Below are positions 42,460 to 58,102 of a DNA stretch of 64,000 bases, piece by piece; positions within the stretch are counted from its first letter, which is position 1, and every line of letters begins with the position of its first letter. The position numbers and the translations under genes are program-made. The notes beneath the pieces are model-generated. The model worked only from the letters and a program-made list of their open reading frames with translations, had not been told where the DNA came from and did not search any database. This DNA is from Escherichia coli (GTDB taxonomy: Bacteria; Pseudomonadota; Gammaproteobacteria; Enterobacterales; Enterobacteriaceae): NCBI RefSeq assembly GCF_024298765.1, contig NZ_CP101210.1. The stretch is one strand, 5' to 3'.

Positions 42460-43294
42460 CAGGGCAAGATTACGAAAGCCCGCTCCCCGTAAGGACTGAC
42501 GCCAGGTAGTTTCTGTCCATAGCTGCCCTTTCTATTCAAACGTGAAATCAATAAGTTCATCAGGGACATCACAAACAATATGAAGACGGGTTTCTTCTCT
42601 GCCGTGACTCTTTTCACTAATTGAGTAACTGTCGTGCTCTGGATTATTTAATTCTTTCAGCGGAAATTTTTCCTCAAAGGCTTTATTAAGCCGCCACCTG
42701 ATTTCCTTTTACAGCGAATAAATAATCACCTCCCTGTTTTTGTATCTTCTCTGCAATATCTTTCTGGCAACTCATCGCATCAGTTGTGATGATTTTTCCT
42801 TTAATATCCAGCATGTTAAGAAGTTCAGGGATAGCTGTAATTTCATTGGATTTCTCATCCGTCCTGATCTGTCCGATGACCAGACTGTGCATTGTTGAGA
42901 ACGCACTAATGACATGAATCGCTCCCCTGCGGCGACTCTTGTCATAAGAATGCCGGAGCGTTTTTCCATCAATTGCAATAACGTCTTTATCATCTGAAGA
43001 ATGGCAGTCACGCATCCAGTTAATAAAGCACTCGTGAAATTTTGAAGGACTGATACAGGATACAACTCTGGCGATGGTATCGTGAACAGGAATACCATTT
43101 TAAAAATCACCATATTGTTTTAAAAAATCGAGATGTGTTTCCCCAAAATCCTCTATATCTTCCCAACCATCTGCACCAGAAATAACGGCACAAATAGTCA
43201 ACAGTAGAATATCCGACAATTTATGTTCCACTTTTCCAGGATTGTCTGTAATCGGGAATAACAGAAATATGTTCCATCAATTTTTTAAGTACCA
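42460..43294 (-). pseudogene. H-repeat (ISAs1-family) transposase pseudogene, copy 1: internal deletion plus nonsense/frameshift
   Basis: Aligns to the intact copy at 45108-46244 but lacks about 330 bp near the 3' end, has the 1-bp insertion shared with copy 3, and a stop (ttttaaaa in place of ttttcaaa) near 43100. Confidence 0.85.
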
Positions 43295-43424
43295 TTTTGT
43301 TCTCCTTAATTATGTAAGGAGTATTTGATCATGTATAAGCAATAAAAAACAGCTTTAGGTAATGAGGAATATCTCAATTTTTAAACATAAAATGCGAATT
43401 GTCTAGTACAAAAAAGCAGCGTTA

Positions 43425-43531
43425 CGTGATCTTTCCCTGAGAGGTACAGGAACTGCGGGAGGAACTTTATCAGGTTAAACAGGGGTTAAGGGGATGCGGA
43501 ACGGGATGTTTAGTGTGCTGAACGAAAGCTA
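43425..43531 (+). pseudogene. SymE-like toxin gene remnant (internal deletion)
   Basis: Retains the leader and GTG start context and the 3' end of the intact copy at 46375-46725; central part deleted, early stop. Confidence 0.7.
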
Positions 43532-43587
43532 AATAATAAAAAAGCCGGGAAGATCTTATCTTTCCCGGCCATCTTGCCATACATTAA

Positions 43588-44022
43588 TTATTTATGAATA
43601 TAATATAACTGAACATCATATTCATTATCACTTAAAACTATTAGTCGATCGGGAAATGTAAATGCTAATGAAAGATCATATGTTTCATTTATCGAAAACA
43701 AACTCAATATGAAATTTGAAAAATTTTCGACATGAAGAGATATGCAAACATCTCCATTATAGAATATATTGCAAAGAATATCTTTTTTCACATTCAGTGT
43801 ACTTTCAACATCTCTCGCTAGATCATTAATATTTAAAGGTAAATTGAAAACTCTCCTTTCAATAATATTATCGGTTTTATTTATTGCCATTAGCATTTCT
43901 CGATGCCACATGAAGTCATTCTTACGTAAGAATGATACATCAAAGGAAGTGACACCATTTAATTTAGAAGCATAATCTTTTGCTCTAATTAAATTTAATT
44001 TATCTTCAAGGCTAATTTTCAT
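43588..44022 (-). CDS. Putative Rhs-toxin immunity protein (orphan cassette 1)
   Basis: 144-aa low-GC ORF starting 4 nt before the stop of the orphan toxin reading frame; typical rhs-CT/rhsI arrangement. Confidence 0.6.
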   Translation of the reverse strand: MKISLEDKLNLIRAKDYASKLNGVTSFDVSFLRKNDFMWHREMLMAINKTDNIIERRVFNLPLNINDLARDVESTLNVKKDILCNIFYNGDVCISLHVENFSNFILSLFSINETYDLSLAFTFPDRLIVLSDNEYDVQLYYIHK

Positions 44023-44470
44023 AATATATATGATGATCCTTAGTTACAGGGTCATTGATCTTCTGATATCTATCACTTTTGAAATCGTATGTTCTAGGAT
44101 CAGCGCCCGGTTTAGGTTGTCCTGCATGTGCGTGAGGGCCAGGTGCCCTAGGATCTGCCGTGTGCTCGACTACAACTTTCTTACGTCCGTAGGCATCTGT
44201 ATATTCATAATATCGCCCATGAGACCCTAAATCTTCCGAATATTTATAATTTGTTTGTCCCCTTCTTCTAGGATCATTTCCAACGGTCCATTGCCTATTA
44301 GGTTGCTGTGAACGAGGTATGCCCGCAAGATCTTTTGCTTTATTTAGTGCCTGACGACGGTTTCTTAATTCACCACATTTAAGACCAAGCGGATCTATCC
44401 AGCTTACTGGATTAGGCGCGTAAGCATATAAGTTTAGCCCCCCCGCCAGCCCTATCGGGTCGGGTTACGT
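44011..44470 (-). pseudogene. Orphan rhs C-terminal toxin remnant (no start codon; in-frame stop before the DPxGL motif)
   Basis: Reverse-strand frame reads ...[46 protein letters not shown] followed by a 125-aa unique domain ending at the immunity gene; not in the ORF track because it lacks a start. Confidence 0.7.
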
Positions 44471-44634
44471 AAATGTTCCACAGTCCGAGTCGTAGTACCT
44501 CAGAAGGTTGCAGTGCAATCCCGCCTTGCGACATCAAGGCATAGTTTCAGAAAAAGTAAGGAGCAATCACCATACCCCAATTCACTGGGTGCTAAATAAT
44601 ATCTGGTAACATCCCTTACTTCAATTCTATTTCA

Positions 44635-45030
44635 TTACAACTTCTTTACTTTCCATATTCTTTGCGCAGCTAAAAAAGATACTCCTTTGAACCAAGACGC
44701 ACATTCAATAACTTGTTCCCATGAATATATTTTATGTGAGCTAAATTTTATCGATTCATCTTGGTTCATTATCTCAATAAAATAATATCCTTTATTATAA
44801 TCTCTTTTTTCTATTCTATCTTCAGCTCTTGCCGAACGTATAGAAATAACACAATCATCTAATAAACAAAATCTTTTCTTTATAATCGCATCATCTTGGT
44901 TCCATGGATTTGTACTTGCCATTTGTTCTGATTGTTTCAGCTCATTCACTACTGTATACCAAATAGCTTCGGTATCACTTGCCTTTGCATTCTCTCTATC
45001 AGACTCGGATCTAAATATAATTTTGTCCAT
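44635..45030 (-). CDS. Hypothetical protein, possibly an orphan immunity gene
   Basis: 131-aa low-GC ORF between H-repeat copy 2 and the orphan toxin remnant; no recognisable motif. Confidence 0.4.
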   Translation of the reverse strand: MDKIIFRSESDRENAKASDTEAIWYTVVNELKQSEQMASTNPWNQDDAIIKKRFCLLDDCVISIRSARAEDRIEKRDYNKGYYFIEIMNQDESIKFSSHKIYSWEQVIECASWFKGVSFLAAQRIWKVKKL

Positions 45031-45107
45031 TTTAATAATCCAAATGTAAATTACTTAAAATACCCTCTGCCTCATTCCAGGCATTGACATGGGAACCCAG
45101 GGAAAGA

Positions 45108-46244
45108 TTACGAAAGCCCGCTCCCAGCAAGGACTGACGCCAGATAGTTTCTGTCCATGGCTGCTTTTCGCATCTTACGTCTTAACCCTGCCTTGAATAC
45201 CTTATCATTCGTCAAAATATTAATAGCGATGTGCCGTATCCCTGAAAATAATTCTGCTGCATTTCCTCTTCTTATTTTGCAGTCGTCTTCATTCATTACC
45301 ACGTCCAGACGCCAGTGCAGCTTATTCTCCACGTGCCAGTGGTTTCGGATTGCTGTGGCGAACTTCTCTGCGGTTAAATCAGCAGAACTGATATAATATC
45401 TGACCGTCATTTCTGGCTCTTTCTTTTGTTCTGCTATTATTGACCGAAAGGAGACTGCCACGCATAATTTCTTCAGACCTTTCCATTCAAACGTGAAATC
45501 AATAAGTTCATCAGGGACATCGCAAACAATATGAAGACGGATTTCTTCTCTGCCGTGACTTTTTTCACTAATTGCGTAACTGTCATGCTCTGGATTATTT
45601 AATTCTTTCAGTGGGAATTTTTCCTCAAAGGCTTTATTAAGCCGCCCCTGATTTCCTTTTACAGCGAATAAATAATCACCGCCCTGTTTTTGTATCTTCT
45701 CTGCGATATCTTTCTGGCACCCCATCGCATCAGTTGTGATAATTTTTCCTTTAATATCCAACATGTTAAGAAGTTCAGGGATAGCTGTGATCTCATTGGA
45801 TTTCTCATCCGTCCTGATCTGTCCGATGACCAGACTGTGCATTGTTGAGAACGCACTAATGACATGAATCGCTCCCCTGCGGCGACTCTTGTCATAAGAA
45901 TGCCGGAGCGTTTTTCCATCAATTGCAATAACGTCTTTATCATCTGAAGAATGGCAGTCACGCATCCAGTTAATAAAGCACTCGTGAAATTTTGCAGGAC
46001 TGATACAGGATACAACTCTGGCAATGGTATCGTGAACAGGAATACCATTTTCAAAATCACCATATTGCTTCAAAAAATCGAGATGTGTTTCCCCAAAATC
46101 CTCTATATCTTCCCAGCCTTCTGCACAAGAAATAACGGCACAAATAGTCAACAGTAGAATATCCGACAATTTATGTTCCACTTTCCAGGCTTGTCTGTAA
46201 TCGGGGATAATAGAAATATGTTCCATCAATTTTTTAAGTTCCAT
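45108..46244 (-). CDS. H-repeat-associated protein (ISAs1-family transposase), intact copy 2
   Basis: 378-aa ORF of the YhhI/YdcC/YbfD H-rpt type; element left end about 45094 (aagattacgaaagcccgc). Confidence 0.9.
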
Positions 46245-46374
46245 TTTGTTCTCCTTAATTATGTAAGGAGTATTTGACCATGTATACGCAATAAAAAACA
46301 GCTTCAGGTAATGAGGAATATCTCAATTTTTAAACATAAAATGCGAATTATTTAGTACAAAAAAGCAGCGTTAC

Positions 46375-46725
46375 GTGATCTTTCCCTGGTTAATCATGGC
46401 TGAACACGATATTACGCCAGAAATCACCATTTCCAAAACACAGCGCCGCTATAAAGTCGGCTATGTCAGAGCCCGCCACATAAACAGCAAAACCTACATG
46501 ACCACGTACTACTCACGACACCCCAGCCTGAACCTCAAGGGCGACTGGCTGAAAGAGGCCGGATTTGATACCGGGCGGGGTGTCACGGTGAAGATTTCGG
46601 AGGGGTGCCTGACCATCATCGCTGACAGTGACGAGGTGCAGGAACTGCGGGAGGAACTTTATCAGGTTAAACAGGTGGTTAAGGGGATGCGGAGCGGGAT
46701 GTTTAGTGTGCTGAACGATAATTAA
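46375..46725 (+). CDS. SymE-like toxin (AbrB/SpoVT-fold type I toxin family), intact copy
   Basis: 116-aa ORF from GTG (or 109 aa from ATG at 46396); contains the SymE-family core LKGDWLKEAGFDTGRGVTVKISEGCLTI. Confidence 0.75.
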   Translation: MIFPWLIMAEHDITPEITISKTQRRYKVGYVRARHINSKTYMTTYYSRHPSLNLKGDWLKEAGFDTGRGVTVKISEGCLTIIADSDEVQELREELYQVKQVVKGMRSGMFSVLNDN

Positions 46726-46776: not shown

Positions 46777-47172
46777 TTATTCAGGAAATTTTCTATTTTT
46801 ATATGATGACCATAAGTGAGTGATCGACCAAGAGTTTTCCTTTCCGAGTACAAAACTTTTGGAGATTATCTCAATATCATCAGATATACGCGAAGATATT
46901 TCAGAATTATTAATCACCCTGAATGAGTATTTAAATGCCTTTTCTCGCAAGGAATCAATAAACTCAATATCATCATCCTGAAAACTTTCCTTATCTAATG
47001 AATTAAACTCACTCATCCAGCAATCATCAAACTCCGGTTCATCTCTTGAGTCTAATGCACTATCAACATTTAATGATTTAAGAAAATCAAAAAATGACGG
47101 GGTGGATAAACAGTTATCAATTTCAATTAGCTTATTATTAATCATCACATTAACCCTTGTCCTTTGAGCCAA
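46777..47172 (-). CDS. Putative Rhs-toxin immunity protein (orphan cassette 2)
   Basis: 131-aa acidic low-GC ORF immediately 3' of and overlapping the GHH-type orphan toxin. Confidence 0.6.
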   Translation of the reverse strand: MAQRTRVNVMINNKLIEIDNCLSTPSFFDFLKSLNVDSALDSRDEPEFDDCWMSEFNSLDKESFQDDDIEFIDSLREKAFKYSFRVINNSEISSRISDDIEIISKSFVLGKENSWSITHLWSSYKNRKFPE

Positions 47173-47790
47173 ACCTCTATTAAATCAACAGCCTTGGATG
47201 GTGTCACATTAGTACCTAGCGTATAAGTTCCATTTGGAGATTTAACATCAACTCTGATGTCATCTAATTTTGAATACGCTTTTCTGTAAGCATCAAATAA
47301 CTCTTTATCCGAACCAAGGAAATCACCTTGTCTTGGACCTATCACATCTCGTTCCGCATGATGTAAACGCCAGTGATTATGTTCTGGATTTTCTCCTCTA
47401 GGGAATAATGTTGGGCGAGTTTTATCAGATCGGGAAACTTCAAACGGACGTCCTTTAGATTTACGAACCGCAGGAACATGATGTCCAGATTCACTCACGC
47501 CCATACACTTCTTCGTTAATCCAAGGGGATCGATCCAGCTTAACGGATTCGGTGCATAAGCATACAGGTTTAACCCGCCTCTTAGCCCTATCGGGTCCGT
47601 TACCATGAACCGCCCGACATCCGGATCATAGTACCTGTGCAGATTGTAATGCAGCCCCGTTTCCCTGTCGAGGTACTGTCCCTGGTAGCGCAGGTTCTGC
47701 TCCACCCCGCCGTGGTCCTTCTCCTGTATCGTGTTACCCCAGACCTGATACCCCGTCTCCCACACGATTTTCCCGTCACTGTCCGTCATC
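47145..47790 (-). CDS. Orphan rhs C-terminal fragment with GHH-signature HNH/EndoVII-like nuclease toxin domain
   Basis: Core end ([38 protein letters not shown]) followed by a unique domain containing SGHHVPAV and EHNHWRLHH; 5' end truncated by the H-repeat copy 3 insertion; the track Met is fortuitous. Confidence 0.65.
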
Positions 47791-47802
47791 TCCAGGGCAA
47801 GA

Positions 47803-48940
47803 TTACGAAAGCCCGCACCCCGCAAGGACTGACGCCAGATAGTTTCTGTCCATGGCTGCTTTTCGCATCTTACGTCTTAACCCTGCCTTGAATACCTTAT
47901 CATTCGTCAAAATATTAATAGCGATGTGCCGTATCCCTGAAAATAATTCTGCTGCATTTCCTCTTCTTATTTTGCAGTCGTCTTCATTCATTACCACGTC
48001 CAGACGCCAGTGCAGCTTATTCTCCACGTGCCAGTGATTTCGGATCGCTGTGGCGAACTTTTCTGCGGTTAAATCAGCAGAACTGATATAATATCTGACC
48101 GTCATTTCTGGCTCTTTCTTTTGTTCTGCTATTATGGACCGAAAGGAGACTGCCACGCATAATTTCTTCAGTCCTTTCCATTCAAACGTGAAATCAATAA
48201 GTTCATCAGGGACATCACAAACAATATGAAGACGGGTTTCTTCTCTGCCGTGACTCTTTTCACTAATTGAGTAACTGTCGTGCTCTGGATTATTTAATTC
48301 TTTCAGCGGAAATTTTTCCTCAAAGGCTTTATTAAGCCGCCACCTGATTTCCTTTTACAGCGAATAAATAATCACCTCCCTGTTTTTGTATCTTCTCTGC
48401 AATATCTTTCTGGCAACTCATCGCATCAGTTGTGATGATTTTTCCTTTAATATCCAGCATGTTAAGAAGTTCAGGGATAGCTGTAATTTCATTGGATTTC
48501 TCATCCGTCCTGATCTGTCCGATGACCAGACTGTGCATTGTTGAGAACGCACTAATGACATGAATCGCTCCCCTGCGGCGACTCTTGTCATAAGAATGCC
48601 GGAGCGTTTTTCCATCAATTGCAATAACGTCTTTATCATCTGAAGAATGGCAGTCACGCATCCAGTTAATAAAGCACTCGTGAAATTTTGCAGGACTGAT
48701 ACAGGATACAACTCTGGCAATGGTATCGTGAACAGGAATACCATTTTCAAAATCACCATATTGCTTCAAAAAATCGAGATGTGTTTCCCCAAAATCCTCT
48801 ATATCTTCCCAGCCTTCTGCACCAGAAATAACGGCACAAATAGTCAACAGTAGAATATCCGACAATTTATGTTCCACTTTCCAGGCTTGTCTGTAATCGG
48901 GGACAATAGAAATATGTTCCATCAATTTTTTAAGTTCCAT
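47803..48940 (-). pseudogene. H-repeat (ISAs1-family) transposase pseudogene, copy 3 (frameshifted)
   Basis: Split into two ORFs (47803-48156 and 48332-48940) by a 1-bp insertion (aagccgccacctg versus aagccgcccctg in the intact copy). Confidence 0.85.
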
Positions 48941-49080
48941 TTTGTTCTCCTTAATTATGTAAGGAGTATTTGATCATGTATAAGCAATAAAAAACAGCTT
49001 TAGGTAATGAGGAATATCTCAAATCTTAAACATAAAATGCCAATTATTTAGTACAAAAAAGTAGCGTTACGTGATCTTTC

Positions 49081-49570
49081 CCTAAAACGCAGACCCAGTT
49101 GTGCATAGTACACATGGTACGCAACAGCCTGCGGTTCGTGACGTGGAAAGACTATAAAGCGGTAACCCGTGACCTGAAACAGGTTTACCGCGCGGCCACG
49201 GAAGAAGGCGTGTTGCAGGCGCTGGATGCGTTCGGGAAGGAATGGGATGCACGGTACCCGCAGATAAGTCGCAGCTGGCGGGCAAACTGACCGAATGTTG
49301 CCACCTTCTTCGTGTACCCGGAGGCGATCCGAAAGGTTATCTACACCACTAACGCAATCGAATCGCTGAATAGCGTCATCAGACATGCGATAAAGAAAAG
49401 GAAAGTGTTCCCGACAGATGAATCGGTGAAAAAAGTGGTGTGGCTGGCTATCCAGTCAGCCTCACAGAAATGGACGATGCCACTTCAGGACTAGCGGATA
49501 GCCATGAGTCGCTTTATTATCGAGTTCGGTGACCGCCTTGACGGTCACTTCTGAGAAAGGCATTTACACA
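49081..49570 (+). mobile_element. IS256-family (mutator-type) transposase gene remnant, 5'-truncated and frameshifted
   Basis: ORFs 49099-49290 and 49312-49494 encode the C-terminal part of an IS256-type transposase (...YPQISRSWRAN / IRKVIYTTNAIESLNSVIRHAIKKRKVFPTDESV...); begins abruptly at the shared leader sequence. Confidence 0.75.
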
Positions 49571-49947: not shown

Positions 49948-51753
49948 TTATTTACGCCGAGTTATTTTTGCATTATCAGAAAGAACAATATCACCTTTCA
50001 CAGTCAATTCATCTATATGGTATCGAGGGTTTGTTACCCACTCTAATTGCTCGTTAGGTACATCTGTTTCCACATAATCTCTACCTTTCCCACGACCTAT
50101 TTGATATTTCGCCTCTATGTCTACTTGACTGAGTGGTTTTTTATTCGCAGGTTCCAAATATACACGACCGTTATCATGCGCCTTAATTATCCCACTTTCA
50201 GCAATCGCATTTGAACCTTTACGATTAGTATAATGCCGCACACGAGTAGTTCCATTACAGAGCTCTTTTTTTAATCCGAGTGGATCAATATATTTCAGCG
50301 GATTAGGCGCATAAGCATATAAGTTCAACCCACCCGCCAGCCCTATCGGATCCGTTACAATGAACCGCCCGACATCCGGATCATAGTACCTGTGCAGATT
50401 GTAATGCAGCCCTGTTTCCCTGTCGAGGTACTGTCCCTGGTAGCGCAGGTTCTGCTCCACCCTGCCGTGGTCCTTCTCCTGTATCGTGTTACCCCAGACC
50501 TGATACCCCGTCTCCCACACGATTTTCCCGTCACTGTCCGTCATCTCTTCCGGCGCGCCGTTCACATCCGTGTGAAAATACAGTATCCGGTTCGGGCCCT
50601 CTTTGCCCGCCTTATCCACCCGCGCCAGCGGTTCATAACTCCCCGGGTCCCTGTAGATGTACAGGCTGTCTGTTCCCTCCGGCCTGCTCTCCTGCGCCAG
50701 CCGCATTCCGTCCCATAAAAATGCCGTCCGGTTGTACGGTTTACCGTCAGGGCTGATGTGCTGTTTTTCCGTCCGCCTCCCCAGCGCATCGTACACATAC
50801 CGGTACGTTCCCCGCGCTGTCGTCACTTCCACCATCCGGTGTTCCGCATCATAACGGTAACTCTGCGTGCCGCTCCGCCCCTCCTTTTCCACCGCACGGC
50901 CAAATTCGTCGTAACGGTAGTGCACACCACGGTAAGACATCAGCCGGTTGAACGGCACCACGCTGTTTTCTGCCGTGGCCCTTTCCCCCGCGCGCCGCCC
51001 CAGCAGGTTTCCCGCCGCGTCGTACTGCCAGCTCGCCAGATACCCCTCATCCTCCGAGCGGCACGCCGTGATGCGCCCCGTGGGGTCGTAGAAGTAATCC
51101 GTTTCCCCCCGCCGGCTGTGCCGCGTCTTCAGCAGTTCATCCTCGCCACTGTAGCTGTACTGCCGGTCCGTGAACGTCTCCGGTACCACCCCGCGCATCC
51201 CGCTGTATGTCTCCCTGCGCTTCAGCCGCCCGGCGGGGTCGTAAAGCTGCCGCGTGCTCAGTCGCCCCTGACTTCTGAGCACTTCACGGTGCAGGGCGTC
51301 ACGAGTGAACTCGCTGATGACCTCCCGGTCCAGATTTATCTGCTGGAGATGGCCGCTGCCGTAGTACAGATGACGCTGCGTTCTGCCGTCCGGAAAGGTG
51401 GTGGCTGTCCGGTTGCTGAGTTCATCGTACTGATGGGTCAGGACGCCCTGCGCCGTCTCCTCAGTCAGCATCCGCCCCAGTCTGTCGTAACTGAAACGGA
51501 TAATCTCCGGTGCGTCTGTTTCCCCGGCATCCGACCGTCGGCGGCGGATTTCCAGTAACTGGTCTGCCGCATCATGGACGTATTCCGTACGGCTATCGGC
51601 TGTCTCCTTTGCCGTGAGCCGGCCCGCCGCATCACGTGCCAGCCGGTGGCGGATTTCACCGCCCCGGTCCCCGGTGAACACCACTTCCGTGACCGCGTTC
51701 AGCGCGTTGTAGCGGTACGTCTGGCGGCAGCCGTCGTGCTGCCAGCGCAGCAT
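49948..51753 (-). CDS. Orphan rhs fragment: about 480 aa of Rhs core plus a distinct C-terminal toxin domain
   Basis: YD-repeat core near-identical to the main rhs, then DPIGLAGG...DPLGL and a unique roughly 108-aa tail (KKELCNGTTRVRHYTNRKGSNAIAESGII...); rhs homology starts at DGCRQTYRY, so the track Met is fortuitous. Confidence 0.8.
   Translation of the reverse strand: MLRWQHDGCRQTYRYNALNAVTEVVFTGDRGGEIRHRLARDAAGRLTAKETADSRTEYVHDAADQLLEIRRRRSDAGETDAPEIIRFSYDRLGRMLTEETAQGVLTHQYDELSNRTATTFPDGRTQRHLYYGSGHLQQINLDREVISEFTRDALHREVLRSQGRLSTRQLYDPAGRLKRRETYSGMRGVVPETFTDRQYSYSGEDELLKTRHSRRGETDYFYDPTGRITACRSEDEGYLASWQYDAAGNLLGRRAGERATAENSVVPFNRLMSYRGVHYRYDEFGRAVEKEGRSGTQSYRYDAEHRMVEVTTARGTYRYVYDALGRRTEKQHISPDGKPYNRTAFLWDGMRLAQESRPEGTDSLYIYRDPGSYEPLARVDKAGKEGPNRILYFHTDVNGAPEEMTDSDGKIVWETGYQVWGNTIQEKDHGRVEQNLRYQGQYLDRETGLHYNLHRYYDPDVGRFIVTDPIGLAGGLNLYAYAPNPLKYIDPLGLKKELCNGTTRVRHYTNRKGSNAIAESGIIKAHDNGRVYLEPANKKPLSQVDIEAKYQIGRGKGRDYVETDVPNEQLEWVTNPRYHIDELTVKGDIVLSDNAKITRRK
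50362..51735. repeat. 1.37-kb direct repeat, copy A (orphan rhs core)
   Basis: Essentially identical to 52880-54253 (offset 2518 bp); the antisense track ORFs 50392-50718 and 50758-51558 recur identically at 52910-53236 and 53276-54076. Confidence 0.9.
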
Positions 51754-51774
51754 CTGCCCAACCGCAGCGACACG

Positions 51775-51978
51775 CCGGTGATCAAAATCAGCGCCAAATG
51801 GCTGAGAGAAGCGGGATTTGAGATCGGCACGGGCGTTACCGTGAAGATCTCGGAAGGCTGCCTGATCCTGCTTGCAGATAACAACGGAGTACAGGAACTG
51901 CGCAGGGAACTTTATCAGGTTAAACAGTCTGTTAAGGGGATGCGGAACGGGATGTTTAGTATGCTGAACGATAATTAA
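51775..51978 (+). pseudogene. SymE-like toxin gene 3' fragment
   Basis: Encodes ...IKISAKWLREAGFEIGTGVTVKISEGCLILLADNNGVQELRRELYQVKQSVKGMRNGMFSMLNDN; 5' part replaced by the orphan rhs junction. Confidence 0.7.
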
Positions 51979-52043: not shown

Positions 52044-52424
52044 CTAAATCAATCTTTTTTTTAATTCCCTTATTTCAGGAGTTAATGCAAAACTGTCTTC
52101 TAAAGATTCGTCATCCAAGGCCCAGTAATTAATAAGATCTATATGATTTTTATAATTATCAAGCAGAGTGTTGAGTGCTTTTACAATAACTTTATCTGAA
52201 GGAGGTACTCCAGAAGATAATAAATCATTACAGACATCAAGGGCTAAAGTCATTAATTCATTCTTCCCTTTTTGTGAGTAGCCATTATTTAAATATGCAG
52301 CAATATATTTACTTAACCACTCTTTAGTTCGATATTTTTCAGGCAGTTCATAAGCCCAATCTTGTGTAAACTTATCACTCACTGGTACACCAAGTTCACT
52401 ACAGATTTTATCTATTTCATTCAT
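52044..52424 (-). CDS. Putative immunity protein for the main Rhs toxin
   Basis: 126-aa low-GC ORF 18 nt downstream of the main rhs stop. Confidence 0.65.
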   Translation of the reverse strand: MNEIDKICSELGVPVSDKFTQDWAYELPEKYRTKEWLSKYIAAYLNNGYSQKGKNELMTLALDVCNDLLSSGVPPSDKVIVKALNTLLDNYKNHIDLINYWALDDESLEDSFALTPEIRELKKRLI

Positions 52425-52441
52425 ATATATCCTTCATTATT

Positions 52442-55400
52442 TTAGTTGTCGTGTGATGAATTGAATGGGAACGATGTACGTACAGAACCGTCGGGTTTTA
52501 CAACAACCCTTGCCATATCTGGAACTACCTCTGTCCCATCAGGTAAATAACCTCGACTTTTTATATTTGTAGGCAATGGCACATCATGCACACCTGGTCC
52601 TTTTTTGGCAACAGAAGCAATAAAATCAGCAGCAGAATTATCATCGAGATATTGTCCAACTTGATGACCTTTATTTCTGGCACGATCAATTAACTGATTT
52701 GGTTTCATTTTCTGTCCGTGTTCAGAAAAGGTGTGACCGTATGTAGGCTTACTTTTTGGATTTCCCCATTTGAAGTCAGATTTAGGACACAATCCAAGTG
52801 GGTCGATCCATGACAGTGGATTAGGTGCATACTGATATAAGTTTAACCCGCCTCTCAGCCCTATCGGGTCCGTTACCATGAACCGCCCGACATCCGGATC
52901 ATAGTACCTGTGCAGATTGTAATGCAGTCCCGTTTCCCTGTCGAGGTACTGTCCCTGGTAGCGCAGGTTCTGCGCCACCCCGCCGTGGTCCTTCTCCTGT
53001 ATCGTGTTACCCCAGACCTGATACCCCGTCTCCCACACGATTTTCCCGTCACTGTCCGTCATCTCTTCCGGCGCGCCGTTCACATCCGTGTGAAAATACA
53101 GTATCCGGTTCGGGCCCTCTTTGCCCGCCTTATCCACCCGCGCCAGCGGTTCATAACTCCCCGGGTCCCTGTAGATGTACAGGCTGTCTGTTCCCTCCGG
53201 CCTGCTCTCCTGCGCCAGCCGCATTCCGTCCCATAAAAATGCCGTCCGGTTGTACGGTTTACCGTCAGGGCTGATGTGCTGTTTTTCCGTCCGCCTCCCC
53301 AGCGCATCGTACACATACCGGTACGTTCCCCGCGCTGTCGTCACTTCCACCATCCGGTGTTCCGCATCATAACGGTAACTCTGCGTGCCGCTCCGCCCCT
53401 CCTTTTCCACCGCACGGCCAAATTCGTCGTAACGGTAGTGCACACCACGGTAAGACATCAGCCGGTTGAACGGCACCACGCTGTTTTCTGCCGTGGCCCT
53501 TTCCCCCGCGCGCCGCCCCAGCAGGTTTCCCGCCGCGTCGTACTGCCAGCTCGCCAGATACCCCTCATCCTCCGAGCGGCACGCCGTGATGCGCCCCGTG
53601 GGGTCGTAGAAGTAATCCGTTTCCCCCCGCCGGCTGTGCCGCGTCTTCAGCAGTTCATCCTCGCCACTGTAGCTGTACTGCCGGTCCGTGAACGTCTCCG
53701 GTACCACCCCGCGCATCCCGCTGTATGTCTCCCTGCGCTTCAGCCGCCCGGCGGGGTCGTAAAGCTGCCGCGTGCTCAGTCGCCCCTGACTTCTGAGCAC
53801 TTCACGGTGCAGGGCGTCACGAGTGAACTCGCTGATGACCTCCCGGTCCAGATTTATCTGCTGGAGATGGCCGCTGCCGTAGTACAGATGACGCTGCGTT
53901 CTGCCGTCCGGAAAGGTGGTGGCTGTCCGGTTGCTGAGTTCATCGTACTGATGGGTCAGGACGCCCTGCGCCGTCTCCTCAGTCAGCATCCGCCCCAGTC
54001 TGTCGTAACTGAAACGGATAATCTCCGGTGCGTCTGTTTCCCCGGCATCCGACCGTCGGCGGCGGATTTCCAGTAACTGGTCTGCCGCATCATGGACGTA
54101 TTCCGTACGGCTATCGGCTGTCTCCTTTGCCGTGAGCCGGCCCGCCGCATCACGTGCCAGCCGGTGGCGGATTTCACCGCCCCGGTCCCCGGTGAACACC
54201 ACTTCCGTGACCGCGTTCAGCGCGTTGTAGCGGTACGTCTGGCGGCAGCCGTCCGGATTTATCTGCTCCGCCAGACGGTCCAGCACGTCATGGCGGAACC
54301 GGTAGCTTTCTCCGTTCTCGTTTGTCAGCGTGACCAGACGCCCGTAAGCATCGTACCCGAACGCCGTCCTGCGCCCCGTCGCGTCTGTCCGGCTGCGCAC
54401 CCGGCCCTGCCCGTCCCGCTGCCAGCGCGTTATCCTCCCCATCGGGCTGGTGTACTTCACCAGCCTGCCCGCCGCGTCCGACTGGTAATTCACCGTGCGG
54501 CCGTCCGCCAGTATCACCTCCGTCAGGTGGCCGCTGTCGTCATACCCGTAGCGCGTGCTGTGGCTCTGCGCGTCTGTCATCCGTATCAGCCGCGTGCGTT
54601 CGTCGTAGAACCAGGCCGTCTGCGAGCCGGAACAGTCCGTGTGCCGCATGAGCTGCCCGTCTTCGTTCCACTGAAGGTATTTATTCCCCCCGCGCGCATC
54701 GGTTATCTGCACCACCTGGCCGTGGCGGTCATACTGATACCGGGTGTTCTGCTGCAGCGGGTCGGTCACCGCAAGAAGATTGCCGCGTTCATCGTACTCA
54801 CAGCACCAGCTGTTCCCCGCCGCGTCCACCTCCGTTTCCGGCTGGTGCCACACCGGGTGCCACTGTGTCTGTGCCACCCGCCCCAGCGGGTCGTGCGTCT
54901 CCGTGATATGCCCCTGCCGGTCATACACATAGCGCCATTTGCCGCCCTGCGCATCGGTCATTCCCAGTAACAGCCGTTCTTCGTCGCTCCAGCGGAACGT
55001 CGTCACCTGCCCGGCTTCGTCCTGGTACGCCGTCACCTGATTCTGCGCGTCCCACTGATGATAACGCGTGCGCCCCAGCCCGTCCGTCACGCACAGCCTG
55101 CGTGACGCCAGGCTCCACGCCAGCCGGTACTGTTCACCGCTGTCCGTGTGGTGCCCCGTCACCCGCCACGCTGCGTCATCCGGGCCTTCATACCAGCTCC
55201 ACTGGTAATAATACCCTTCGCCGCCCGGCTGGCGGTGCAGGGTCATGCAGTGGTTTTCGTCGTAAGCAAACTCGCGCAGCAGGTGTCCCGTGCTGTCGTA
55301 CACGCCGTTCAGGTCGCCGGCCTCGTCATAGCGGTAACGACGCAGCAGTAAAGGAGCCGTCTCAGGGAAATGCTGATAAATCTGTGTCACCCGCCGGGGA

Positions 55401-57100
55401 TGCGCCGCCAGTTCATAATGCAGACGGATGCACGGACGCTGCTGTTCACCGCTGATTTGCGTGATGCGCCCCAGCTCGTCGTAGTACAGATTCAGACAGT
55501 TGCTGTTGCGGTCGCCCAGCATTTTCAGCCGCTGGCGCTGCGGGTGATGCGGGTCGGCTTCAAACAGAAAAAACTGCCCGTCATCGCTGCTGATAAGCCA
55601 GTGCCCCTGCTCACCCCGCCTTACCGCCAGTCCTTCGCCGGGGCTGTAAAACCCGCTCCCCGGCAGCACGGCCTCCATATCCAGGCGTCGCCCCATGCCC
55701 GACACAAAGGTCATGCAGTTTTCGTCAGCAGTACCCGGCGTGCGCCCGAGGCTGACTTCATACATCACGCTCCAGCCCTGCCCGAACATCCCTTCCGTGC
55801 GGTCGTCACGACTGCTGTACACGCGCTGCCAGTCCAGCGGAAAGTGGCCCGGCAGACTGAAATCGAAGTCATCGTCATCGGCCAGATATTTGGCTCCGGT
55901 GGCGGCATTGACCGGATGCGGAAGGGCACTGATGGCCTTCTGCGTCATCACCCCCATCCCGACACTGGCAGCAAAACAGGCGATTTTAGAAAGCATTTTG
56001 CCCGGGCGAAGAAACATCAGCGCCACGGTTGCCACCAGGGTTATCTGCGACCTGCCGCTTCTGATATCCCTGACCACCAGTAACGGACCGCCAATGCGGA
56101 CATCCGGTGACACAAACGCCCCGTTCCCCGGCTCATTCACCACCCTGGCCTCGCAGGTGCAGCGTGCCCCGCTGCGTGCCGCCGGCTGGCTGTTGATACG
56201 CACATCCCGCGCGCCTTCCGCGATATATTCCGCTGCGGGCGGTTCATCATCGCCTTTGAACAGATTACTGATGCTGCCAATAACCGCATTCACTCCCTGA
56301 AAGGCGGTTTCCAGCATACCGTCCGGACTCAGCAGGTTAAGGGCCGTTCCCAGGGGGTCATCCAGAAAGGCGGCTTTTTTTTGTGCGAGAAACTGCGTCA
56401 GTGAGGAGGGATGTTTATGGCAGTCGATTTTATCGTCAGGGGTCGGGGTGGAGCCCGGGGCCGCACTGGCCACGGTGGGCTGCCATAGTTCCGACACAAA
56501 ATGTGTCACGCCATCCACCATTTCAGAACGCCCTTCTTCCGTACTGAGCTGGTCGTGCAGCGCCCGGGACATCAGCACAGGCCCTGTCACCGGGTTAACC
56601 GCCAGGGCTATGGCCCCCGCCATTTCCAGATATTCCCCGGCCACATCCAGGAACGTTCTGGCATCCTCCTGACGCTGCGCTTCTTCCTGTTCCGCCTTCG
56701 CCTGCGCCTCCTGCGCCTCAATGTCCTGCCGCGATGCCGCAGTCGCCGCGGCCCGCGCGGCAGGTTTGCTGTTGATCCATGTGTCGCCAGAGCCGGTGAG
56801 GATGTAACCTTCAATCTGAGGCGGGAAAAGCATATTTGCGAGGTCTGAACAGACTTCGCTGACCGTGTCTGTCACGCCGGTGTACACCATCGCCACACCC
56901 GCCACAAAACCGGTCAGCACGACGGCCGTGCACCCCATCGTGATCCCCACTGACGCCGCCAGTAACGAGGTTGTGCCGACAATGAGGGCATCAATAACGA
57001 CATTTGCGGCCACCTCCAGCACCGCCCCCAGCACATCTGCCATAAACGACGTATGCAGCAGGGCATCACCCTGCCTTGCCGCCCAGAATGCCTCTTCCAT
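52442..57100 (-). CDS. Full-length Rhs polymorphic toxin with N-terminal prePAAR-like motif and hydrophobic segment (T6SS effector-like), YD-repeat shell and variable C-terminal toxin domain
   Basis: 1552-aa ORF; N-terminus MEEAFWAARQGDALLH fits AARxxDxxxH, followed by about 55 hydrophobic residues and PAAR-containing segments; YD repeats; core ends PxxxxDPxGL (WIDPLGL) about 115 aa before the stop. Confidence 0.85.
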   Translation of the reverse strand: MEEAFWAARQGDALLHTSFMADVLGAVLEVAANVVIDALIVGTTSLLAASVGITMGCTAVVLTGFVAGVAMVYTGVTDTVSEVCSDLANMLFPPQIEGYILTGSGDTWINSKPAARAAATAASRQDIEAQEAQAKAEQEEAQRQEDARTFLDVAGEYLEMAGAIALAVNPVTGPVLMSRALHDQLSTEEGRSEMVDGVTHFVSELWQPTVASAAPGSTPTPDDKIDCHKHPSSLTQFLAQKKAAFLDDPLGTALNLLSPDGMLETAFQGVNAVIGSISNLFKGDDEPPAAEYIAEGARDVRINSQPAARSGARCTCEARVVNEPGNGAFVSPDVRIGGPLLVVRDIRSGRSQITLVATVALMFLRPGKMLSKIACFAASVGMGVMTQKAISALPHPVNAATGAKYLADDDDFDFSLPGHFPLDWQRVYSSRDDRTEGMFGQGWSVMYEVSLGRTPGTADENCMTFVSGMGRRLDMEAVLPGSGFYSPGEGLAVRRGEQGHWLISSDDGQFFLFEADPHHPQRQRLKMLGDRNSNCLNLYYDELGRITQISGEQQRPCIRLHYELAAHPRRVTQIYQHFPETAPLLLRRYRYDEAGDLNGVYDSTGHLLREFAYDENHCMTLHRQPGGEGYYYQWSWYEGPDDAAWRVTGHHTDSGEQYRLAWSLASRRLCVTDGLGRTRYHQWDAQNQVTAYQDEAGQVTTFRWSDEERLLLGMTDAQGGKWRYVYDRQGHITETHDPLGRVAQTQWHPVWHQPETEVDAAGNSWCCEYDERGNLLAVTDPLQQNTRYQYDRHGQVVQITDARGGNKYLQWNEDGQLMRHTDCSGSQTAWFYDERTRLIRMTDAQSHSTRYGYDDSGHLTEVILADGRTVNYQSDAAGRLVKYTSPMGRITRWQRDGQGRVRSRTDATGRRTAFGYDAYGRLVTLTNENGESYRFRHDVLDRLAEQINPDGCRQTYRYNALNAVTEVVFTGDRGGEIRHRLARDAAGRLTAKETADSRTEYVHDAADQLLEIRRRRSDAGETDAPEIIRFSYDRLGRMLTEETAQGVLTHQYDELSNRTATTFPDGRTQRHLYYGSGHLQQINLDREVISEFTRDALHREVLRSQGRLSTRQLYDPAGRLKRRETYSGMRGVVPETFTDRQYSYSGEDELLKTRHSRRGETDYFYDPTGRITACRSEDEGYLASWQYDAAGNLLGRRAGERATAENSVVPFNRLMSYRGVHYRYDEFGRAVEKEGRSGTQSYRYDAEHRMVEVTTARGTYRYVYDALGRRTEKQHISPDGKPYNRTAFLWDGMRLAQESRPEGTDSLYIYRDPGSYEPLARVDKAGKEGPNRILYFHTDVNGAPEEMTDSDGKIVWETGYQVWGNTIQEKDHGGVAQNLRYQGQYLDRETGLHYNLHRYYDPDVGRFMVTDPIGLRGGLNLYQYAPNPLSWIDPLGLCPKSDFKWGNPKSKPTYGHTFSEHGQKMKPNQLIDRARNKGHQVGQYLDDNSAADFIASVAKKGPGVHDVPLPTNIKSRGYLPDGTEVVPDMARVVVKPDGSVRTSFPFNSSHDN
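52880..54253. repeat. 1.37-kb direct repeat, copy B (main rhs core)
   Basis: Essentially identical to 50362-51735. Confidence 0.9.
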
Positions 57101-57118: not shown

Positions 57119-57349
57119 TTAATTCGTCCCGGCTTCCTGCCGCATCCTGAAGCGCAGATTCTTTTTAATTTCAGCCCAGCGCGTCATATCAGCCGGGGTC
57201 AGCGGTGTGGTTCGGGCGTAGGTGAAGGCCATCATGACCCGCTCACCCGGCAATACAAATGCCACCTGACACTGGTACACCTGCTCGTTACCCCGGAGAA
57301 ACTGGCTCTGTATTTGCAAACCGCCTCATTGAGATAATATTCCGTCATA
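57119..57349 (-). pseudogene. Possible degenerate Eag-type (DUF1795-like) chaperone gene remnant upstream of rhs
   Basis: ATG at 57347-57349 opens MTEYYLNEAV... (resembles the DUF1795 N-terminus) but stops after 38 codons; a second frame continues 66 codons to 57119; total length is about half that of an intact Eag gene. Confidence 0.25.
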
Positions 57350-58102
57350 ATAGAAGTCGTCCTTTTTAATAAATGAATTATTTATTGACAGGTTCTGTTT
57401 TTTAATCATGAATGTAATGTCTATCACCGCTTTACAGCACTCTTTATCTTTCAAGCCGTAATCACTAATAACATTAAGCAATTACCCATATTTACAATGA
57501 CCGGAACTGATATGCCGTTATGTATTTAACAATCCCAACATATTCACCATACAAATAAAATCACGAGTAACAAACACACTACCGCCTCCATATAAAAAAT
57601 GGACAGCTTATAAAATTGCATCTTGCATAGAAAGGGCTGAGATATCGAGTGTATTTTAATTATCAACTATAAATGTTGAATATTTTCATTAACAGAAACA
57701 CATCTTATCCCATTAGATATGTTAACAATCAATTATTCTTAACATATCACTAAAGTATATATTACTCTCTTTACTATCTGTTTTTATTGCGGTAGCGATA
57801 TTAATAGCAAAATTCGGAATTTATTTAGATGCTGGAATAAGAAAAAGTGATGGCGGCTTTCTCACCTTACCCTGAAGTTTCAGGAAAGTGTGTAAGGAAG
57901 GATGCAACCTAACTGGAGATTTCTGAGGATCTAGTTGCTTAGAGCGACAATGAAGGTGAACGCATCCAGAGTAGTCCTATGAAAGGATACTATTGAAAAT
58001 TGATGCTAAAACAGTGATTAAATGAACAACACCATGGAACCCGTTGATTCAAAACGCCTAAACCAGCCCCCTGATACGAGGCTGGCTTAAACGCGCAGGC
58101 AA

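Follow-up and report, generated by a model that had tools for sequence, protein, structure and literature searches.

Is an orphan Rhs toxin, cut off from its carrier and preceded by an in-frame stop codon, still of use to the cell that holds it, or is it decaying together with its immunity gene? This question was raised by a minus-strand reading frame at the rhsC locus of Escherichia coli, found in a stretch of 64,000 nucleotides (nt) of contig NZ_CP101210.1 (assembly GCF_024298765.1), referred to here as the window, in which the gene order is kdpABC ... rhs ... ybgA-phrB-dtpD. The frame and the gene that follows it form the third orphan cassette of the rhsC array and the most distal one, here called the HNH cassette, behind a full-length main rhs gene and two further orphans (orphan 1 and orphan 2). 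The original prediction had described an orphan toxin with an in-frame stop two codons before a DPxGL motif, in a decaying cassette whose immunity gene is still intact. The comparisons below indicate that it is most probably a stranded and silent orphan rhs-CT/rhsI cassette of the rhsC array.

The minus-strand frame 44012-44556 was confirmed to run through a remnant of rhs core, a TAA codon at 44467-44465, a DPIGL...DPLGL segment, VVVEHTADPRAPGPHAHAGQPK and a C terminus ...DHHIYYEN, closed by TAG at 44014-44012. The DPxGL motif two codons past the stop was found to be the first of two, the canonical PxxxxDPxGL lying intact 25 codons further on. The frame itself is real and on the strand predicted; it ends at 44012 instead of 44011, and the toxin domain has 122 instead of 125 amino acids (aa). 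Decay was found in the core remnant, which carries the stop and a 2-nt indel and has lost its promoter, but not in the toxin domain, where the 122 codons of the window copy contain no nonsense or frameshift lesion. Stops are present in all frames upstream of the toxin frame.

In a profile search, the domain matched Pfam PF15657, of the His-Me finger/Endo VII fold class, with 39.1 bits (gathering cut-off 25; E=9.8e-10) over positions 2-69 of the 69-position profile. The motif VVVEH-TADPRAPGP-HAH ... DHHIYY is present and conserved in homologs, and the spacing of EH-(9 residues)-HAH equals that of H1497 and HFH1507-1509 in TseI of Aeromonas dhakensis, a type VI secretion system (T6SS) Rhs effector with an experimentally shown Tox-HNH-EHHH DNase domain and the immunity protein TsiI (Pei et al., 2020; PMC7170923). 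Judged by profile and motif, the domain is a putative DNase toxin of the Tox-HNH-EHHH family. With TseI it shares the Pfam toxin family on an Rhs carrier, an immunity gene overlapping the toxin stop and the spacing of the catalytic His and HxH; unlike TseI, which is a complete secreted effector, the HNH cassette holds the toxin domain alone, off any carrier, and the two were compared by motif spacing and family. The domain had been called unique, but homologs with 55-84% identity, nearly all of them carrying PF15657, were found in Xenorhabdus, Photorhabdus, Pantoea, Snodgrassella, Enterobacter, Salmonella and metagenomes. The protein search with the toxin domain returned short proteins only (70-214 aa), the full-length carriers being found by DNA search; full-length Rhs proteins are perhaps missing from the protein list through clustering under representatives with other C-termini. 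A sequence search against PDB chains gave nothing meaningful, the best match (E=0.12, an SSU72 phosphatase) being a chance one. Compared to the diverged OZ197100 allele, the toxin domain showed 7 synonymous and 1 non-synonymous changes and a nonsense mutation, small counts which suggest that it was under purifying selection until recently.

Little of the core is left upstream of the toxin domain. DNA homology to the intact core of a metagenome contig (L011) begins at 44521, leaving the approximately 20 in-frame core codons that had been predicted, and weaker core traces extend to approximately 44556 with the 2-nt insertion; several radical substitutions were present besides the insertion and the TAA. 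Where the core is intact or less decayed, relatives have F-T-Q-P-D-P-I-G-L at this site (ACG CAG CCA in OZ197100, ACT CAG CCT in L011), and the FTQP pattern was also shown by two database entries (P0008 and P0011). Read against these relatives, the TAA stands in place of a Gln codon. An origin of the TAA by a paired -1/+1 indel compared to the E. coli core (...ATGGTAACGGAC...) was rejected, since the ACG/ACT CAG CC(A/T) of OZ197100 and L011 is in register (FTQP). The remnant is of the core type FTQPDPIGL, in contrast to the FM/IVTDPIGL of resident E. coli cores. Its TAA reflects neutral decay and does not account for toxin silence, because the frame has neither a start codon nor a delivery region anyway.

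No ATG, GTG or TTG was found across the 150 codons from the TAA to the TAG (44012-44464). The toxin frame has no Met codon at all, none of its Val codons is GTG and none of its Leu codons is TTG, and Met is rare in the toxin domains of the homologs too; the missing start-type codons may reflect plain composition or avoidance of internal initiation. The Prokaryotic Genome Annotation Pipeline (PGAP) names a 147-aa 'HNH/endonuclease VII fold putative polymorphic toxin' (WP_264123853.1) with an ATA start at 44455 (L001 9613-10056, corresponding to 44012-44455 of the window); in other database entries of the toxin the start is a CTG (P0012) or a different ATA (P0001). These starts look like homology-driven gene models and not like evidence of translation.

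The promoter of the remnant has decayed as well. A P2-like site, TCGACA-17-TACAAT (10 of 12 matches), lies approximately 50 nt before DPIGL in identical form in the main rhs, orphan 1 and orphan 2 (52944-52916, 50426-50398 and 47671-47643, minus strand), and is the counterpart of the P2 promoter that was reported inside Salmonella rhs (PMC7043789). In the HNH cassette only a relic was found, TTGATG at 44537-44532 and TGCAAC at 44512-44507 with a 19-nt spacer; its -10 hexamer lacks A2 and T6 of the consensus, its spacing is wrong, and the promoter scan did not detect P2 in the remnant.

Homology to the main rhs, the sole resident partner that could re-arm an orphan, extends over 1463 bp at 98.4% identity for orphan 1, 275 bp at 93.8% for orphan 2 and 140 bp at 71.4% for the HNH cassette. 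The 81-nt DPIGL...DPLGL segment of the cassette is identical to the resident cores at 60-63 of 81 nt, with 15-17 nt as the longest exact run. By these figures the HNH cassette would not have the homology required for recombinational activation.

The gene that follows the toxin encodes a protein without a family match in Pfam or NCBIfam, and its ATG overlaps the toxin stop by 11 nt, in agreement with the predicted overlap. Homologs of this protein with 69-72% identity are located directly 3′ of Tox-HNH-EHHH carriers in Pantoea alhagi, where the homolog comes after a 382-aa DUF8093-HNH protein and again with an 11-nt overlap, and in L011, where it comes after a 452-aa orphan Rhs-HNH. The P. alhagi carrier (L010 5863-7435, CP019706) is a non-Rhs protein with an N-terminal DUF8093 in an ordinary metabolic neighbourhood. 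One toxin/immunity pair shared by three different carriers is what marks a polymorphic-toxin module, and it supports the assignment of the 144-aa open reading frame (ORF) as the putative cognate immunity gene of the HNH toxin. The ORF was open in all seven alleles examined, as had been claimed for the window copy, and the gene is probably usable. If transcribed, it would protect against E. coli firing the same toxin on a full-length T6SS-linked Rhs; we infer both its expression and this protective role. The hairpin with a U tract that closes the cassette has a predicted stability of -18.5 kcal/mol (z=-3.2), and none of 200 shuffles was as stable; another hairpin, between the 131-aa gene upstream and the core remnant, is modestly stable (z=-2.5).

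The toxin and immunity genes were found in 71 of 5426 complete E. coli genomes. The window-type junction including the TAA is present in 64 of these carriers, from chickens, humans, dogs, wastewater and seawater, in copies at least 99.9% identical, and a stretch of 1.7 kb is 100% identical in dozens of independent complete genomes. A further approximately 46 genomes (S10-type) contain the same TAA remnant at an rhsE-type locus, without the HNH toxin and immunity gene; there the end of an ISEc1 insertion sequence abuts the remnant right past DPIGLAG (position 44442), as if an IS-adjacent deletion had removed both genes. The stop, which the original prediction proposed to check for strain specificity and sequencing error, is thus common to approximately 110 independent complete assemblies. 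In strain MEI003, the same 131-aa gene, intergenic region and TAA remnant lead, from DPIG on, into another DPxGL segment and another toxin; the TAA remnant therefore belongs to the junction past the preceding immunity gene and not to the HNH toxin. The identical 131-aa protein of MEI003 comes after an orphan Rhs ending ...GSHVNAWNEAEGIFSNLHLDY, which links it to the toxin tail preceding the 131-aa gene in the window (CT-X). The L011 contig showed the same order of two cassettes, with approximately 300 intact core codons and an ATG.

Full-length versions of the toxin were found in three strains, so that the domain does occur at the C-terminus of complete Rhs proteins; the lack of any such homolog would have refuted the original prediction. 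Strains VCSW7, VCSW5 and Res13-Lact-PER13-34 carry an intact Rhs-HNH of 1559 aa (WP_223024170.1, WP_223040110.1 and WP_195714911.1) at an rhsE-type locus, where vgrG and a DcrB-like chaperone gene precede it. In the aligned VCSW7 allele, the toxin differs from that of the window by 1 aa (A109T), the only difference from DPIGL to the end, and the immunity protein by 1 aa; VCSW7 and VCSW5 share one immunity protein accession. The 11-nt overlap is the same in all three strains. Unlike the window copy, these genes are intact, linked to vgrG and have an E. coli-type core up to DPIGL.

Homology between the window and VCSW7 begins exactly at DPIGL; 5′ of it the two differ, with an E. coli-type core (RFMVTDPIGL) in VCSW7 and the foreign-type remnant in the window. 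The 27-codon segment that starts here spans the PxxxxDPxGL boundary as well as the two Asp motifs of the Rhs C-terminal autoprotease, and matches TIGR03696 (Rhs_assc_core) with 34.4 bits against a cut-off of 32.5. Its synonymous divergence (dS) was 0.22-0.35, versus 0.04-0.10 in the toxin domain. This difference is consistent with crossovers in the segment. The ratios of non-synonymous to synonymous divergence (dN/dS) in this study rest on 8-12 substitutions and lend weak support only. The 81-nt segment is a historical crossover zone in which the HNH toxin was joined to working Rhs cores.

From these results we infer that the toxin is silent, and the direction of events as follows. The toxin/immunity pair would have entered E. 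coli in a two-cassette block, CT-X with its 131-aa immunity protein and then the HNH toxin with its 144-aa immunity protein, from an Rhs lineage whose core ends ...FTQPDPIGL. The core would since have been lost except for the approximately 20 codons, leaving a remnant with the TAA in place of Gln and the 2-nt indel; the internal P2 would have lost its -10 hexamer and spacing, and the toxin frame would be left with no canonical start. With too little homology to resident rhs genes for efficient RecA-mediated re-fusion, such re-fusion would be very unlikely. The toxin could then presumably be neither translated nor delivered, the immunity gene would remain structurally able to function, and the TAA would sit upstream of the zone in which re-arming crossovers appear to have occurred.

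The arrangement has been described before as 'dissociated tip', 'silent cassette' or 'orphan rhs-CT/rhsI' (PMC2935791; PMC3150448), and the HNH cassette is an instance of it: it lies downstream of the main rhs, keeps a core fragment ending in PxxxxDPxGL, has no delivery region or initiation signals, and full-length versions of its C-terminal toxin exist elsewhere. The orphan STM0292 of Salmonella Typhimurium LT2 still shares 522 bp with the main rhs, at 95% identity, and recombines readily (Koskiniemi et al., 2014; PMC3967940); its internal P2 promoter has remained active and works with a CTG start (Starsta et al., 2020; PMC7043789). The HNH cassette resembles the LT2 orphan in being a pair downstream of a full-length rhs, with a retained core ending in PxxxxDPxGL, no delivery region and its own immunity gene, and is unlike it in its short and diverged homology, its decayed P2 relic and its in-frame TAA; it differs from it only in degree of decay. 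Recombination-grade homology is a property of the active Salmonella example and not a strict defining feature of orphans. In Yersinia pseudotuberculosis IP32953, an orphan rhs-CT/rhsI has an in-frame stop in its retained core (Poole et al., 2011; PMC3150448), just as the stop of the HNH cassette lies inside retained upstream rhs coding sequence; species and toxin are different, and the Yersinia orphan keeps more of the upstream core. Displaced rhs tips in arrays, most of them without start sites and some with frameshifts or premature stops, were reported by Jackson et al. (2009; PMC2935791). The HNH cassette is likewise a displaced tip without a start site, in an array downstream of an intact rhs, but unlike those tips its remnant is of the FTQPDPIGL type and its segment is bracketed by two ISEc1 copies. 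The modest particulars of the present case are the foreign core type, travelling with the preceding immunity gene, and this two-ISEc1 bracket.

Several observations weigh against a silent cassette with a serviceable immunity gene. The sole own-strand promoter-like site upstream of the immunity gene (44624-44596, matching at 9 of 12 positions) does not stand out from chance and is a candidate promoter only, scans of 43300-45200 for sigma-70 promoters and terminators not being enriched (9 sites versus 6.8±3.0 in shuffles). The dN/dS of the immunity gene compared to the diverged allele was approximately 0.5, from just 12 changes, and the 64 window-type copies are nearly identical, so that intact frames are uninformative on selection. 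Besides, CTG (44449) and ATA (44455) just past the TAA could permit weak non-canonical initiation, and past crossovers inside the 81-nt segment did occur, so re-arming, though unlikely, may occur.

The first of these observations bear on the view that toxin and immunity gene are both functionless, a wholly inert relic with frames open only through recent arrival. The near identity of the 64 copies would have left no time for decay, no promoter dedicated to the immunity gene was detectable, and the Eag/DcrB-like gene belonging to the main rhs is truncated, a hint that the locus as a whole may be idle. The sister alleles, in which the toxin has decayed independently, speak against it. The toxin of OZ197100 has two nonsense mutations (W to stop and Q72 to stop), yet its immunity ORF is open with 8 aa changes, 7 of them conservative; in ETEC1738 the full-length gene is interrupted (K137 to stop) and in HCP5S3_I2 the toxin is truncated, and in both the immunity ORF is open as well. 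Armed strains with the same toxin exist within the species, so protection has a plausible payoff. We regard an inert relic as unlikely.

A live reservoir, in which the silent toxin is recovered by recombination in the DPIGL...DPLGL segment and fused to the main rhs, was judged rather improbable. In its favour, no lesion interrupts the toxin frame, which lies 1 aa away from armed full-length copies, and the start of VCSW7 homology at DPIGL together with the MEI003 remnant in front of another toxin implies past crossovers in the segment; the Salmonella orphan provides a precedent (PMC3967940). Set against this are the identity and exact runs shared with the resident cores, the 140 bp at 71% to the main rhs compared to 522 bp at 95% in Salmonella, and the argument of Jackson et al. 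(PMC2935791) that displacement needs very high core identity. Orphan 1, with its 1463 bp at 98%, would moreover out-compete the HNH cassette as recombination partner.

It is more doubtful still that the cassette acts like a toxin-antitoxin module, in which low amounts of toxin made from CTG 44449 or ATA 44455 on a transcript started upstream are checked by the immunity protein. Such a module would stabilise the array, and the TAA would then merely lie in the 5′ leader. Toxins of both main and orphan Rhs of Salmonella are expressed from the internal P2 and a CTG start (PMC7043789), the CTG and ATA codons are kept past the TAA, the 11-nt overlap suits translational coupling, and PGAP models an ORF from the ATA. 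However, the scan that finds P2 in the three other copies misses the relic TTGATG-19-TGCAAC, no Shine-Dalgarno-like sequence precedes the CTG (CAGGAT in Salmonella, CCCGAC here), and, as a product of homology-driven modelling, the ATA start does not show that initiation occurs. Very little probability is likewise given to the cassette being kept as a working unit, with the TAA remnant as a translational insulator or leader and a trickle of toxin from CTG or ATA coupled to the immunity gene. If this were true, the cell would be addicted to the distal array, a ready immunity gene and a re-armable nuclease would be kept in lineages of the avian pathogenic E. coli (APEC) type, and the lack of canonical starts would reflect selection for very low initiation. 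A sequencing error or a private recent nonsense mutation of the source strain is the sole explanation excluded outright, nothing having been found in its favour, as the identical sequence occurs in 64 complete genomes of varied sources and the same TAA at a different chromosomal locus in the S10-type genomes and MEI003.

A stranded, silent orphan remains the reading preferred here, and the features of its array are collected in Table 1.

Table 1. Features of the HNH cassette and of the surrounding rhsC array in the window.
Feature	Position	Strand	Remarks
Second ISEc1 copy (ybfD remnant)	42460-43439	-	Downstream border; approximately 311-bp internal deletion and frameshifts
Intrinsic-terminator-like hairpin and U tract	43538-43575	-	End of the HNH cassette
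Putative cognate immunity gene	43588-44022	-	144 aa, own ATG (44022)
Predicted Tox-HNH-EHHH nuclease toxin domain	44012-44380	-	122 codons and TAG; Pfam PF15657
DPIGL...DPLGL segment	44381-44461	-	27 codons, hyperconserved
Vestigial rhs core remnant	44462-44556	-	In-frame TAA, 2-nt insertion, P2 relic
CT-X immunity gene	44635-45030	-	Intact, 131 aa
CT-X	45031-45097	-	Final 22 codons of a different Rhs toxin, cut by ISEc1
ISEc1 (ISAs1 family, 'H-repeat')	45098-46388	-	Full-length; upstream border of the cassette segment
Orphan 2	47145-47825		226 aa
Orphan 1	49948-51753		601 aa
Immunity gene of main rhs	52044-52424
Main rhs	52442-57100	-	Full-length, head of the array, 1552 aa

In the direction of the rhs genes, the array starts with the main rhs and its immunity gene, followed by a SymE-like gene, orphan 1 with its immunity gene and IS debris; orphan 2 with its immunity gene, a SymE-like gene with isrA and the intact ISEc1 come next, and the CT-X tail, the 131-aa immunity gene, the HNH cassette and the deleted ISEc1 form the distal end. 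The two ISEc1 copies have the same orientation and bracket a segment of 1658 bp containing the CT-X tail, the 131-aa gene and the HNH cassette with its immunity gene. The 131-aa protein has no family match in Pfam or NCBIfam.

In most related loci examined, a SymE-like gene lies behind the final immunity gene. At the end of the HNH cassette, 240 bp of such a gene, including its start and most of its length, are gone compared to VCSW7, and the last 97 nt (43438-43534) abut the end of the ISEc1/ybfD remnant at approximately 43439. The SymE-family type I toxin-like ORF adjoining the immunity gene of orphan 2 (46375-46725, plus strand) contains in antisense the Hfq-binding small RNA isrA (46467-46595, minus strand; Rfam RF01385, 117.6 bits), which was the sole match of an Rfam scan of the cassette and its surroundings and lies 2 kb off; no RNA family was found in the cassette. 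A second SymE-like ORF past the immunity gene of the main rhs (51574-51978, plus strand) showed no isrA match at the gathering threshold. Transposase fragments at 49048-49500, annotated by PGAP as incomplete with an internal stop, lie between the immunity gene of orphan 1 and a frameshifted ISAs1 copy (47803-48940).

Upstream of the main rhs, the DcrB-related gene (Eag-type chaperone; 57119-57481, minus strand) is 5′-truncated: its C-terminal 66 aa alone match the 150-aa protein of OZ197100, the remainder being unrelated AT-rich sequence with stops. No vgrG was found between ybfA/kdp and the main rhs in the window.

The HNH cassette matters little in itself. It is a clean and well-documented example of how a displaced Rhs toxin tip looks at a late stage. 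Along this single array, identity to the main rhs drops with distance, from 98% to 94% and 71%. Decay begins with the internal promoter and reading frame of the core remnant, reaches the toxin domain later, as in sister strains, and affects the immunity gene last. The 147-aa polymorphic toxin with an ATA start in RefSeq is an annotation construct and not a demonstrable gene product. A stranded cassette of this kind predicts that approximately 1% of E. coli genomes, among those listed mostly poultry-associated ones, hold ready-made immunity to a T6SS Rhs nuclease, the full-length form of which is carried by a few soil and pig strains.

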